Assembly: GCF_003790525.1 (NCBI RefSeq)
Contig: NZ_CP033635.1
Strand: one strand, 5' to 3'
DNA: 64,000 nt
Source: Escherichia coli
GTDB taxonomy: Bacteria; Pseudomonadota; Gammaproteobacteria; Enterobacterales; Enterobacteriaceae
Shown piece by piece: positions 12,696 through 52,017 of this stretch (position 1 is its first letter; every line of letters starts with the position of its first letter). Below the pieces are notes generated by a model. That model was given only the letters and a program-made list of their open reading frames with translations. It made no database searches and had not been told where the DNA came from. The translations under genes were made by a program, and so were the position numbers.

Positions 12696-12807
12696 CCCCG
12701 GCTAGACCGGGGTGCGCGAATACTGCGCCAACACCAGGGAAATCTTGGCTGCGCCGTAAATTATTATGATGAGTTACAAGGGCACAGCACTGTTTTTCAG
12801 GCCGCAC
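12687..12807 (-). ncRNA. arcZ: small RNA ArcZ (RyhA/SraH), 121 nt, overlapping the arcB 3' end
   Basis: Reverse strand reads GTGCGGCCTGAAAAACAGTGCTGTGCCC...CACCCCGGTCTAGCCGGGGTCATTTTTT, matching the ArcZ sequence as I remember it, including its terminator hairpin. Confidence 0.85.
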
Positions 12808-34277: not shown

Positions 34278-34396
34278 AATCTCGCGCTAACAACCTGGAA
34301 TCGAGCCGTCATACTACGGCGCAACGCCCTATAAAGTAAACGATGACCCTTCGGGAACTTCAGGGTAAAATGACTATCAAAATGTGAATTGTAGCT

Positions 34397-34431
34397 GACC
34401 TGGGACCTGTACCCGGGTCGGTATTTTTTTT
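34397..34431 (+). terminator. intrinsic terminator/attenuator in the greA leader (GraL-type leader RNA)
   Basis: gaccuggg / cccggguc 8-bp stem with one G-U pair, then 8 T's, about 95 nt upstream of the greA start. Confidence 0.6.
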
Positions 34432-45028: not shown

Positions 45029-45150
45029 CTTTCCCTTAGAGTCCTTTTTCAAATATACTGTGAAGACTTCGGCCTTCGTAGTGGGATTTGAAAAAATCCT
45101 TCTGGAAAGTGCTCCAGACCGCAGTTGCGGTTATAGGGTTCAGTTATATA

Positions 45151-45175
45151 AAGCCCCGATTTATCGGGGTTTTTT
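45151..45175 (+). terminator. hairpin plus T-run between metY and rimP (partial terminator/processing site)
   Basis: aagccccga-ttta-tcggggtt followed by TTTTT; a second weaker hairpin plus T7 lies at about 45199..45217. Confidence 0.6.
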
Positions 45176-45234
45176 GTTATCTGACTACAGAATAACTGGG
45201 CTTTAGGCCCTTTTTTTATGTCTTGGGGGTGGGC

Positions 45235-47226: not shown

Positions 47227-49899
47227 ATGACAGATGTAACGATTAAAACGCTGGCCGCAGAGCGACAGACCTCCGTGGAACGCCTGGTACAGCAATTTGC
47301 TGATGCAGGTATCCGGAAGTCTGCTGACGACTCTGTGTCTGCACAAGAGAAACAGACTTTGATTGACCACCTGAATCAGAAAAATTCAGGCCCGGACAAA
47401 TTGACGCTGCAACGTAAAACACGCAGCACCCTTAACATTCCTGGTACCGGTGGAAAAAGCAAATCGGTACAAATCGAAGTCCGCAAGAAACGCACCTTTG
47501 TGAAACGCGATCCGCAAGAGGCTGAACGCCTTGCTGCGGAAGAGCAAGCGCAGCGTGAAGCGGAAGAGCAAGCCCGTCGTGAGGCAGAAGAATCGGCCAA
47601 ACGTGAGGCGCAACAAAAAGCTGAACGTGAGGCCGCAGAACAAGCTAAGCGTGAAGCTGCTGAACAAGCGAAACGTGAAGCTGCGGAAAAAGACAAAGTG
47701 AGCAATCAACAAGACGATATGACTAAAAACGCCCAGGCTGAAAAAGCCCGCCGTGAGCAGGAAGCTGCAGAGCTCAAGCGTAAAGCCGAAGAAGAAGCGC
47801 GTCGTAAACTCGAAGAAGAAGCACGTCGCGTTGCTGAAGAAGCACGTCGTATGGCGGAAGAAAACAAATGGACTGATAACGCGGAACCGACTGAAGATTC
47901 CAGCGATTATCACGTCACTACTTCTCAACATGCTCGCCAGGCAGAAGACGAAAGCGATCGTGAAGTCGAAGGCGGCCGTGGCCGTGGTCGTAACGCGAAA
48001 GCTGCGCGTCCGAAGAAAGGCAACAAACACGCTGAATCAAAAGCTGATCGTGAAGAAGCACGCGCAGCAGTACGTGGCGGTAAAGGCGGAAAACGTAAAG
48101 GTTCTTCGCTGCAGCAAGGCTTCCAGAAGCCTGCTCAGGCCGTTAACCGTGACGTTGTGATCGGTGAAACCATCACCGTTGGCGAACTGGCGAACAAGAT
48201 GGCGGTTAAAGGCTCTCAGGTCATCAAAGCGATGATGAAACTGGGCGCAATGGCAACCATCAACCAGGTTATCGATCAGGAAACCGCACAGCTGGTTGCT
48301 GAAGAGATGGGCCACAAAGTTATCCTGCGTCGTGAAAACGAGCTGGAAGAAGCGGTAATGAGCGACCGTGACACGGGTGCAGCGGCTGAACCGCGCGCGC
48401 CGGTTGTGACCATCATGGGTCACGTTGACCACGGTAAAACCTCTCTGCTGGACTACATTCGTTCAACGAAAGTGGCCTCTGGCGAAGCGGGCGGCATTAC
48501 CCAGCACATTGGTGCATACCACGTTGAAACTGAAAACGGCATGATCACCTTCCTGGACACCCCGGGGCACGCCGCGTTTACTTCAATGCGTGCTCGTGGT
48601 GCGCAGGCAACGGACATCGTAGTCCTGGTTGTTGCTGCCGACGACGGCGTAATGCCGCAGACCATCGAAGCAATCCAGCACGCGAAAGCGGCGCAGGTTC
48701 CGGTGGTCGTTGCAGTGAACAAGATCGATAAACCAGAAGCCGATCCGGATCGCGTTAAGAACGAACTCTCCCAGTACGGCATCCTGCCGGAAGAGTGGGG
48801 CGGTGAAAGCCAGTTCGTACATGTGTCTGCGAAAGCGGGTACTGGTATCGATGAGCTGCTGGACGCTATCCTGCTGCAGGCGGAAGTTCTGGAACTGAAA
48901 GCGGTACGTAAAGGCATGGCGAGCGGTGCGGTTATCGAATCCTTCCTCGATAAAGGTCGTGGTCCGGTTGCTACCGTTCTGGTACGTGAAGGTACTCTGC
49001 ACAAGGGCGATATCGTTCTGTGTGGCTTCGAATACGGTCGTGTTCGTGCTATGCGTAACGAACTGGGTCGGGAAGTGCTGGAAGCGGGTCCGTCCATTCC
49101 GGTGGAAATCCTCGGCCTGTCCGGCGTTCCGGCTGCGGGTGATGAAGTTACCGTTGTACGTGACGAGAAGAAAGCGCGTGAAGTTGCACTCTATCGTCAG
49201 GGTAAATTCCGCGAAGTTAAACTGGCGCGTCAGCAGAAATCTAAACTCGAGAACATGTTCGCCAACATGACCGAAGGCGAAGTTCACGAAGTGAATATCG
49301 TCCTGAAGGCAGACGTACAGGGTTCTGTGGAAGCTATCTCCGACTCCTTGCTGAAACTGTCTACTGACGAAGTTAAAGTGAAGATCATCGGTTCTGGCGT
49401 AGGTGGTATCACCGAAACCGACGCTACCCTGGCTGCGGCGTCCAACGCCATCCTGGTTGGCTTCAACGTACGTGCTGATGCCTCTGCACGTAAAGTAATT
49501 GAAGCGGAAAGCCTGGATCTGCGTTACTACTCCGTCATCTATAACCTGATCGACGAAGTGAAAGCGGCAATGAGCGGTATGCTGTCTCCGGAACTGAAAC
49601 AACAGATTATCGGTCTGGCGGAAGTTCGTGACGTATTCAAATCACCGAAATTTGGTGCCATCGCAGGTTGTATGGTTACCGAAGGTGTGGTTAAACGTCA
49701 CAACCCGATCCGCGTTCTGCGCGACAACGTGGTTATCTACGAAGGCGAGCTGGAGTCCCTGCGCCGCTTCAAAGATGACGTTAACGAAGTCCGTAACGGT
49801 ATGGAATGTGGTATCGGCGTTAAGAACTACAACGACGTCCGCACTGGCGATGTGATCGAAGTATTCGAAATCATCGAAATCCAACGTACCATCGCTTAA
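47227..49899 (+). CDS. infB: translation initiation factor IF-2 (alpha form, 890 aa)
   Basis: G-domain motifs [18 protein letters not shown]; in-frame internal starts GTG 47698 and ATG 47719. Confidence 0.97.
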
Positions 49900-49916
49900 G
49901 GTTTTTAGGGTTCCAT

Positions 49917-49986
49917 GCGGGATAAGGCGTTTACGCCGCATCCGGCATGGATTGCCTGATGCGACGCTGGCGCGTCTTATCAGGCC
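49917..49986. repeat. REP/BIME element (two inverted REP units) in the infB-rbfA spacer
   Basis: gcgggataaggcgtttacgccgcatccggca followed by gcctgatgcgacgctggcgcgtcttatcaggcc, both classic E. coli REP consensus sequences. Confidence 0.85.
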
Positions 49987-50020
49987 AACGTGAACAGCCC
50001 TTCCACCTGAAATTAATTTT

Positions 50021-50046
50021 AAAAAGGGGCTAACAGCCCCTTTTTT
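50021..50046 (+). terminator. hairpin with A-run and T-run flanks between infB and rbfA
   Basis: AAAAA-ggggc-taaca-gcccc-TTTTTT directly upstream of the rbfA ribosome-binding site. Confidence 0.55.
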
Positions 50047-50062
50047 GTCAGGAGAATTTATT

Positions 50063-50464
50063 ATGGCGAAAGAATTTGGTCGCCCGCAGCGCGTAGCGCA
50101 GGAAATGCAAAAAGAGATCGCTCTCATCCTGCAGCGTGAAATTAAAGATCCTCGTCTGGGCATGATGACCACCGTTTCCGGTGTCGAAATGTCTCGTGAC
50201 CTGGCGTATGCCAAAGTATATGTGACGTTCCTCAACGACAAAGATGAAGACGCGGTTAAAGCGGGCATCAAAGCGTTGCAGGAAGCTTCTGGTTTCATCC
50301 GCAGCCTGCTGGGGAAAGCGATGCGCCTGCGTATCGTGCCGGAACTGACCTTCTTCTACGACAACTCGCTGGTTGAAGGGATGCGCATGTCAAACCTGGT
50401 GACCAGCGTGGTCAAACATGACGAAGAACGTCGTGTTAACCCGGACGACAGCAAGGAGGACTAA
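50063..50464 (+). CDS. rbfA: ribosome-binding factor A
   Basis: ORF contains [34 protein letters not shown]..., 133 aa. Confidence 0.95.
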
Positions 50465-51408
50465 TGAGTCGTCCTCGTCGTCGCGGTCGCGACATTAACG
50501 GCGTTTTGTTGCTGGATAAACCGCAGGGGATGTCCAGCAACGATGCGCTGCAAAAAGTGAAACGGATTTATAACGCCAACCGTGCCGGGCATACCGGTGC
50601 GCTGGACCCGCTGGCGACCGGCATGTTGCCGATTTGCCTCGGGGAAGCGACGAAGTTTTCCCAGTATCTGCTGGACTCCGACAAACGCTATCGGGTCATT
50701 GCGCGTCTTGGACAGCGTACCGATACGTCTGATGCCGACGGACAAATCGTTGAAGAACGTCCGGTAACCTTTAGTGCAGAGCAACTGGCGGCGGCACTGG
50801 ATACTTTCCGTGGCGATATCGAACAGATCCCTTCGATGTATTCAGCACTGAAATACCAGGGCAAAAAACTGTACGAATATGCGCGTCAGGGCATTGAAGT
50901 TCCGCGTGAAGCGCGCCCGATTACCGTTTATGAATTGCTGTTTATTCGCCACGAAGGCAATGAGCTGGAGCTGGAAATTCACTGCTCAAAAGGCACTTAT
51001 ATCCGCACCATCATTGATGACCTGGGTGAAAAACTCGGTTGTGGCGCGCATGTTATTTACCTGCGTCGTCTGGCGGTAAGTAAATATCCGGTTGAACGGA
51101 TGGTGACCCTGGAACATCTGCGTGAACTGGTTGAACAAGCCGAACAGCAGGATATTCCAGCCGCGGAGTTACTTGATCCATTACTGATGCCAATGGACAG
51201 TCCAGCTTCGGACTACCCGGTGGTGAATCTTCCGTTAACGTCTTCTGTTTACTTCAAAAATGGTAACCCGGTTCGTACATCCGGTGCGCCGCTGGAAGGA
51301 CTGGTTCGCGTTACAGAAGGTGAGAACGGCAAGTTTATCGGTATGGGCGAAATTGACGATGAAGGCCGCGTCGCGCCTCGTCGCCTGGTGGTTGAATACC
51401 CGGCGTAA
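50464..51408 (+). CDS. truB: tRNA pseudouridine-55 synthase
   Basis: 314-aa ORF with catalytic motif [12 protein letters not shown]. Confidence 0.96.
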
Positions 51409-51842: not shown

Positions 51843-51870
51843 AAAAGGGGGCCTGAGTGGCCCCTTTTTT
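51843..51870 (+). terminator. rpsO intrinsic terminator
   Basis: aaaa-ggggcc-tgagt-ggcccc followed by TTTTTT. Confidence 0.8.
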
Positions 51871-51920
51871 CAAGCTGACGGCAGCAATTCACTGGAAACT
51901 AATGTATTGTTGCTATGAAT

Positions 51921-52017
51921 GATCTTCCGTTGCAGAGGTTCGCGCGGCTAATGAGAGGCTTTACCCACATTGGGCTGGGTTAGGGTTGTCATTAGTCGCG
52001 AGGATGCGCAGAAGATC
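51921..52017 (+). promoter_or_regulatory. long imperfect stem in the pnp 5' leader (RNase III autoregulatory processing hairpin)
   Basis: gatcttc (51921..51927) pairs with gaagatc (52011..52017) closing an about 95-nt structured leader; function assigned from knowledge of E. coli pnp. Confidence 0.45.

Follow-up and report, generated by a model that had tools for sequence, protein, structure and literature searches.

The spacer between infB and rbfA in Escherichia coli contains what is likely a partial intrinsic terminator, which lowers transcription of rbfA and truB relative to infB and has a single Y/Z2 pair of inverted REP units (a BIME) just upstream of it. We analyzed this spacer within a 64,000-nt stretch of E. 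coli DNA (the window; all coordinates are positions in it). Partial intrinsic termination is the best-supported reading because a canonical terminator signature, conservation and published transcripts all argue for it. The site itself is already known: it is the metY-nusA-infB operon's terminator t3 (Brandi et al., 2019, PMC6511841), with partial termination at the same place and no difference in kind, and it is the same element as the BIME proposed as a candidate attenuator before rbfA (Naville and Gautheret, 2010, PMC2965389). With t3 already described, the observation holds but is unremarkable; the modest addition made here is that of a constant terminator preceded by interchangeable repeats. 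In the parts of the t3 literature available to us, the sequence anatomy of the site, the BIME and the conservation across genera are not described.

An 801-nt query covering the infB-rbfA stretch (49600-50400) is 100% identical to E. coli SC516; of 5426 complete E. coli genomes, 5422 carry it at a coverage of at least 80%, annotated as infB and rbfA. The infB-rbfA spacer is 163 nt long in the window, the MG1655 annotation gives an equal length, and MG1655 differs from the window by four SNPs over 201 nt. In an Rfam search of the window, the matches to the tRNA, rimP leader, S15 leader and SraG fell where expected. A consensus scan found no rbfA promoter inside the spacer. The features of the site are as follows.

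49897-49899, + strand: infB (IF2) stop codon TAA, closing ORF 47227..49899; infB is so annotated in identical E. coli records.
49907-49911, + strand: AGGGU, the 5' flank of the BIME, predicted to pair with GCCCU at 49997-50001 in minimum free energy and nascent-transcript folds only.
49912-49951, + strand: REP unit 1, a Y-type palindromic unit in inverted orientation, from the inverted repeat, hairpin fold and allele comparison.
49953-49986, + strand: REP unit 2, a Z2-type palindromic unit in forward orientation, from the inverted repeat and hairpin fold.
49916-49986, + strand: the whole BIME, one Y/Z2 REP pair, matching Rfam naRNA4 (RF02564) at 77.2 bits, E = 1.8e-13.
49987-50020, + strand: spacer between BIME and terminator, containing AGCCCUU at 49996-50002 (thermodynamic prediction).
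50021-50025, + strand: A-tract (A5), which lengthens the stem by pairing with the U-tract and gives the site its symmetry, from sequence, inverted repeat and fold.
50026-50040, + strand: terminator stem-loop GGGGCU-AAC-AGCCCC, the published t3, from sequence, fold, conservation and PMC6511841.
50041-50046, + strand: T6 (the U-tract), followed by GT, from sequence.
50050-50054, + strand: rbfA Shine-Dalgarno sequence AGGAG, 8 nt before the ATG and 3 nt after T6.
50063-50065, + strand: rbfA start codon ATG, in frame with ORF 50045..50464, whose translation is the 133-aa RbfA.

The initial annotation of this DNA had described an A-run, a 5-bp GC stem and a T6 run ending at the rbfA ribosome-binding site. 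All of these elements are there, with T6 ending 3 nt before the Shine-Dalgarno sequence, except that the stem has 6 bp rather than five (five G-C pairs and one U-A) and closes a 3-nt loop. The stem core has a predicted stability of −9.5 kcal/mol; with the A5/U5 extension the helix reaches 11 bp and −14.8 kcal/mol. Judged from its sequence, t3 has what is expected of an intrinsic terminator: a G/C-rich stem-loop, an uninterrupted U-tract and a conserved orthologous position.

Chance level was estimated with a rule anchored on the stem core (a G-C-closed stem of 5–8 pairs with at least four G-C, a loop of 3–8 nt, and at least six T in 8 nt starting with TTT). It picks out 13 sites across the 64-kb window, t3 included, vs. 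1.2 ± 1.1 in 30 dinucleotide shuffles. Its + strand matches in the operon lie at 45154-45169 and 45198-45210 (both in the metY-rimP leader), 50026-50040, and 51848-51864 (just after the rpsO ORF). A standard promoter/terminator scan of 49000-51000 called no terminator. We rejected that negative as an artefact of the scanning rule, since greedy stem extension through the A5:T5 pairs consumes the T-run, while the core-anchored rule finds the t3 site.

Published transcripts agree with a partial stop at this place. With reference to earlier studies of the operon, Brandi et al., 2019 (PMC6511841) place t3 just upstream of rbfA in the metY-nusA-infB operon. Their northern blots show a read-through RNA of ~6.7 kb hybridizing to rimP, nusA, infB and rbfA probes, and a rimP-nusA-infB RNA of ~4.8 kb lacking rbfA and "likely" ending at t3; these RNAs were assigned by size and probe rather than by a mapped 3' end, and the 4.8-kb RNA could have arisen by processing. 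The same paper ranks the mRNAs as nusA > infB > rimP > rbfA, quotes an earlier count that puts infB mRNA at ~2× rbfA mRNA, and describes NusA feedback acting on the operon. Naville and Gautheret, 2010 (PMC2965389) arrived at the site from another direction: among their predicted attenuators, a cluster lying before gatY, rbfA and cvpA was recognized as BIMEs, which they proposed to be exapted attenuators. Their Figure 8 marks terminators and possible anti-terminators for these three BIMEs, and they cite BIMEs as bidirectional terminators and attenuators.

A 3' end in Term-seq data had been put forward as a check on the site, and here the thresholded lists of Adams et al., 2021 give no positive signal. 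Neither the 3' ends from three conditions nor the Rho regions (supplementary file 2) include an entry at MG1655 3313100-3313299, and the lists contain no entry named infB, rbfA, nusA or truB. REP-associated 3' ends elsewhere do appear in these lists. In the part of the LB OD 0.4 sheet that we examined, the lowest read counts were ~850. Because there is no entry, termination at t3 would be modest or below the read threshold; because the lists are thresholded, the absence counts against a very strong 3' end and not against partial termination. The TERMITe and SMRT-Cappable-seq supplements had no matches for an infB-rbfA 3' end. The proposal that the site is an attenuation point that sets rbfA/truB levels independently of infB is supported by the northern transcripts (PMC6511841), by the attenuator prediction (PMC2965389) and by the conserved hairpin and T-tract described below.

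The events we envisage at the site are as follows. RNA polymerase leaving infB would transcribe two very stable REP hairpins and then meet a Rho-independent terminator consisting of A5, the 6-bp G/C stem with its triloop, and U6. A fraction of polymerases would release at t3, giving the rimP-nusA-infB mRNA, and the remainder would read into rbfA-truB and partly on into rpsO-pnp; with part of the polymerases released there, rbfA/truB mRNA would be roughly half of infB mRNA. In the read-through RNA the hairpin would lie 3 nt upstream of the rbfA Shine-Dalgarno sequence, and rbfA, 163 nt from the infB stop, would be translated by independent initiation. The sequence anatomy, its conservation and the northern-blot transcripts that stop before rbfA or continue into it are observations; where exactly in the U-tract the 3' end lies, how efficient termination is and what the BIME does are inferred.

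Two inverted REP units upstream of rbfA had also been claimed, and inverted repeats, folds and an Rfam match locate them at the claimed place. The units are in opposite orientation: REP1 carries GATAAG in its 5' arm, and REP2 carries the complementary CTTATC in its 3' arm. REP1 has 19-nt arms that are 84% complementary and forms an RNA hairpin of −25.7 kcal/mol (z = −5.8), and REP2 has 14-nt arms and forms one of −21.4 kcal/mol (z = −5.6). The whole infB-rbfA spacer folds to −73.2 kcal/mol vs. −47.1 ± 4.7 for shuffled sequences, with 0 of 200 shuffles as stable. The RF02564 score is 77.2 bits on the + strand, above the gathering threshold of 59.5, and falls to 41.3 on the − strand. With the same model, the six REP325 units of MG1655 reach 95–111 bits, and given its lower score we regard the infB-rbfA BIME as a more diverged single unit of the REP325 family. 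We did not adopt naRNA4 as a functional label, as RF02564 recognizes generic Y/Z2 pairs and the nucleoid function is disputed: a nucleoid role for REP325/naRNA4 finds no support in a 2026 preprint.

The Rfam match is the independent evidence for the family assignment. Our Y and Z2 regular expressions were built from these same sequences, so their low error counts do not constitute independent support. The REP-type expressions also missed a variant, GCCGGGATCGCCTCGCG(C/T)CACCCGGC, that is visible in several spacers of 82–105 nt. The MG1655 RefSeq annotation has no repeat feature at infB-rbfA, which is uninformative because REP325 is also unannotated in that copy of the record. Within the 64-kb window this BIME is the sole copy, and it is extragenic, between infB and rbfA; a 221-nt query containing it has a median of 12 matching places per E. 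coli genome. A GTAG/CTAC tetranucleotide tail adjoining the REP palindrome is the site used by RAYT transposases. In the window, the tail of unit 2 is CAAC, with one mismatch to CTAC, and that of unit 1 is lost.

Within E. coli the BIME is effectively fixed (5422 of 5426 genomes), and REP unit 1 occurs as two alleles. The canonical form with a GTAG tail, reading ...TTGTAGGCCGGATAAGG...CATCCGGCAGCCGT..., is found in 726/5426 genomes. All others, including K-12, ST131 and the window, have a derived form, ...TTCCATGCGGGATAAGG...CATCCGGCATGGAT..., with changes in both arms that lengthen the stem by UCCAUGC/GCAUGGA. Two of four aligned canonical alleles (ETEC4075 and strain 98205) keep CTAC on unit 2, as do relatives such as those at loci L002 and L018. 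The terminator loop also has two forms in E. coli, CUAACAG and CUAUGG, with the GGGGC/GCCCC core unchanged in both.

We then compared the site across the Enterobacteriaceae, using 80 loci that encode close relatives of RbfA, with one genome per species. Spacers were compared for 81 sequences, comprising 79 of the 80 loci, MG1655 and the window. Spacer length ranges from 62 to 289 nt. A G/C hairpin of 5–8 bp followed by a T-rich tract lies 20–30 nt before the rbfA ATG in all 81. At least six of the 8 nt after the stem are T in 68/81 (E. coli and 67 others), and four or five in the other 13; at least four of the 5 nt before the stem are A in 62/81. The 5' G-run and the 3' C-run have the same length in 80 of the 81 sequences (4:4 in 63, 5:5 in five and 6:6 in 12), and the loops comprise 30 distinct sequences. 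Matched runs around 30 different loops are what one expects if selection acts on the hairpin and leaves the loop free. For 58 distinct hairpin sequences aligned with MAFFT, RNAalifold predicted only three pairs, which is uninformative because MAFFT set stems of unequal length out of register; hairpins were detected per sequence instead. The GGAG core of the rbfA Shine-Dalgarno sequence is at the same position in 80/80 loci.

The filling of the spacer upstream of the hairpin varies by lineage, with a distance from infB stop to hairpin of 21–247 nt. In Cedecea, Buttiauxella, Atlantibacter, Shimwellia and their allies there is nothing in this gap (spacers of 62–75 nt). In most Klebsiella, Enterobacter and Raoultella the gap holds a single REP of another type, the K-type (GCCGGGTAAGCGAAGCGCCACCCGGC or a variant of it). 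The Y+Z2 pair is found in E. coli, E. albertii and Pseudocitrobacter, and some Citrobacter and Kluyvera have Y with another REP type (Y+C-type). Ten loci have a REP together with an element that we take to be ERIC-like from its likeness to ERIC primer sequences. In the 13 shortest REP-free spacers (62–69 nt) the stem is stronger (−13 to −16.5 kcal/mol) and the T-tract is interrupted (e.g. GUUUUGUC); the A-tract is missing in most. Since the REP-free spacers have interrupted T-tracts, the ancestral element may have terminated less efficiently, or the hairpin may have had another role.

Because the hairpin and T-tract are universal while the content upstream of them varies, the terminator is ancient and conserved, and the BIME a lineage-specific insertion of repeats derived from mobile elements. 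The position between the infB stop and the hairpin has evidently accepted REP or ERIC-like elements repeatedly in the Enterobacteriaceae, and a gap of this kind, bounded by a stop codon and an internal terminator, seems to favor the landing or retention of such repeats. The argument of Naville and Gautheret, 2010 (PMC2965389) is that sequence and position of the repeat are both conserved among Enterobacteria; in the 80-locus comparison, by contrast, only the hairpin and T-tract are universal. Interchangeable REP, BIME and ERIC-like content speaks against the BIME as a conserved regulatory device.

This raises the question of whether the BIME does anything here at all. It could be a neutral passenger, a selfish or mobile repeat tolerated in a permissive gap with no measurable effect on infB or rbfA expression. 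That unrelated repeats, or none, occupy the same gap in different genera fits such a passenger, as does the coexistence in E. coli of the two quite different left-REP alleles, with 726/5426 genomes canonical. So does a point made in the abstract and section titles of the 2026 preprint: terminal REPs do not, as a rule, extend the half-life of an mRNA. However, the BIME is present in 5422/5426 E. coli and is common to E. albertii and Pseudocitrobacter, and its REP hairpins (−21 to −26 kcal/mol) would be hard for 3' exonucleases to pass. In addition, the derived REP1 has changed in both arms while its stem was kept and lengthened, which suggests that its structure is under constraint. On balance we think a passenger quite possible, and somewhat doubtful.

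The mRNA-stability role that the initial annotation had assigned to the BIME is plausible at infB-rbfA by analogy, fitting the behavior of REPs elsewhere, with the proviso that the BIME itself is not conserved. REP-stabilized mRNAs are established, malE-malF being an example, and stable REP hairpins are hard for 3' exonucleases to pass. For transcripts ending at t3, the BIME would probably be a second barrier to 3'-to-5' exonucleases, and it may add some pausing or attenuation. The closest parallel is REP325 in the yjdM-yjdN operon, which has the same Y/Z2 family in the same orientation to transcription and likewise lies between co-transcribed genes. According to the 2026 preprint, REP325 both stabilizes the mRNA of yjdM, upstream of it, and causes partial termination ahead of yjdN, in part through Rho; the same text stresses that REP effects are context-dependent. 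The two sites differ: REP325 consists of 12 hairpins, with a separate canonical terminator not described for it, whereas infB-rbfA has two hairpins followed by a canonical intrinsic terminator.

The REP325 case also bears on whether the BIME, rather than the hairpin and U-tract, is the main attenuator, with REP hairpins pausing the polymerase and Rho acting on the untranslated RNA past the infB stop. A mechanism of this kind has been reported for BIMEs in reporter constructs, the partial Rho dependence of REP325 attenuation (2026 preprint) is in line with it, PMC2965389 lists the rbfA site among candidate BIME attenuators, and the stretch that follows REP2 (49987-50020) is rich in C and poor in G. 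We nevertheless consider it unlikely that the BIME is the main attenuator: it is missing or replaced in most of the 80 species, while the hairpin and T-tract are always there; neither infB nor rbfA appears among the Rho regions of Adams et al., 2021; and a single REP pair is present here vs. the 12 hairpins of REP325.

Nor is the hairpin easily explained as an RNA-level element of the rbfA message, either a 5' stabilizer after processing or a translational insulator, in which case the 4.8-kb RNA would arise by endonucleolytic processing. The near-fixed distance from hairpin to ATG (20–30 nt in 81/81 sequences), the poor, interrupted T-tracts of the REP-free genera and the lack of a Term-seq 3' end at the site in the Adams et al., 2021 lists would all suit an element of that sort. 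It is improbable all the same, as E. coli and 67 loci have the full canonical terminator signature (at least six T in 8, usually with an A-tract), the literature treats the hairpin as a terminator, and the rule that finds it also finds the other hairpin/T-run sites of the operon (45154-45169, 45198-45210 and 51848-51864).

Partial termination at t3, our preferred reading, would let the site help to set the ratio between abundant IF2/NusA and the scarcer ribosome-maturation factors RbfA/TruB within one transcription unit. IF2, NusA, RbfA and TruB are all relevant to cold shock, and the ratio-setting role is already published. The locus could further be a natural test set for REP function, since no repeat, one REP, a BIME, or an ERIC-like element plus REP precede the same terminator.

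A more speculative scheme, which we rate as very improbable, makes the outer flanks of the BIME a ribosome-gated switch acting on t3. In this model, AGGGU (49907-49911), 8–12 nt past the infB stop, would pair with GCCCU (49997-50001), closing the BIME and leaving the terminator free. This 5' flank would be masked while a ribosome terminates at the infB stop, and the freed AGCCCUU (49996-50002) could then pair with AGGGGCU (50025-50031), which includes the 5' arm of the terminator, to give a transient anti-terminator. The prediction thus offers AGCCCUU either of two partners, the 5' flank of the BIME or the 5' arm of the terminator. With the first 15 nt after the stop masked, the alternative pairing AGCCCUU/AGGGGCU is predicted at −8.8 kcal/mol, but in the equilibrium fold the terminator wins over the alternative helix with a pair probability of ~1.0. 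The alternative helix is confined to the lineage with an E. coli-like BIME. If the switch were real, read-through into rbfA-truB would report how closely infB translation follows transcription, and an attenuator sensor would have been made from a mobile repeat.

Finally, the same transcription unit contains the t1/t2 terminators of the rimP leader (RF01770), which are likewise short G/C stems followed by a U-tract. The RF01770 model had no match at E ≤ 1 in 49000-51000, so we rejected t3 as a copy of the rimP-leader attenuator in the sense of family membership. The true rimP leader is at 45117-45217 and scores 102 bits with this model. Its stems are CCCCGA...TCGGGG at 45154-45169 and GGGC...GCCC at 45198-45210, and what they share with t3 is a generic stem motif only.

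Within E. coli the left REP unit of the infB-rbfA spacer (49912-49951) exists as two alleles, seen in a comparison that included the E. coli alleles L082-L086. The canonical form, with its GTAG tail, is kept in 726 of 5426 complete E. coli genomes. All remaining genomes, among them the window, K-12 and ST131, carry the other form, in which both arms are altered jointly, one from TGTAGGCC to TCCATGCG and the other from AGCCGT to ATGGAT. Through this joint change the stem gains seven pairs, UCCAUGC/GCAUGGA. The altered arms could have arisen by conversion from another REP or by stepwise compensation.

The terminator t3, downstream of the REP units, is also dimorphic within E. coli, in its loop (50026-50040; loci L083-L085 and L002 compared). 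The form GGGGCUAACAGCCCC folds into a triloop on 6 bp and the form GGGGCUAUGGCCCC into a tetraloop on 5 bp, with the same G/C core in both. When the hairpin is read on the minus strand it appears as A6-stem-T5; the site is therefore symmetric, and could stop antisense transcription.

One simple rule picks out four plus-strand hairpin/T-run sites along the metY-pnp transcription unit:

45154-45169, + strand, hairpin/T-run site
45198-45210, + strand, second leader site, GGGC...GCCC followed by T7
50026-50040, + strand, t3, GGGGC...GCCCC followed by T6
51848-51864, + strand, hairpin/T-run site

The second leader site and t3 have in common a short stem motif of a G-run paired with a C-run. This motif was held to be specific to the rimP leader (Naville and Gautheret, 2010; PMC2965389), and an Rfam search returned no match of t3 to the rimP model.

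Immediately upstream of rbfA, E. coli and E. albertii share GTCAGGAG (50047-50054 in the window), which provides an AGGAG Shine-Dalgarno. In loci from the remaining genera a T takes this place, mostly as GTCTGGAG with minor variants, and GGAG alone remains.

The spacers of ten species (loci L006, L012, L015, L017, L020, L038, L039, L047, L050 and L056) contain a REP together with an element of ~125 nt, which is identified as ERIC-like by its resemblance to the ERIC primer sequences. Two of the ten, L012 and L020, hold an additional inserted segment. With several repeat families present in these spacers, the gap between the infB stop codon and the terminator looks like a hotspot for unrelated repeats.

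The MG1655 record used (NC_000913.3; L001, L087) has no repeat features, even for REP325 between yjdM and yjdN; since REP325 itself is unannotated, missing REP annotation in the records used is not evidence of absence. A mechanical ORF of 218 aa lies on the minus strand (49642-50298), antisense to the end of infB, the full spacer and the beginning of rbfA; it almost certainly does not represent a gene. Elsewhere in the window, three RNAs scored far above the Rfam threshold, and are known, ordinary features:

12700-12807, - strand, ArcZ
34308-34429, + strand, greA leader
51843-52014, - strand, SraG
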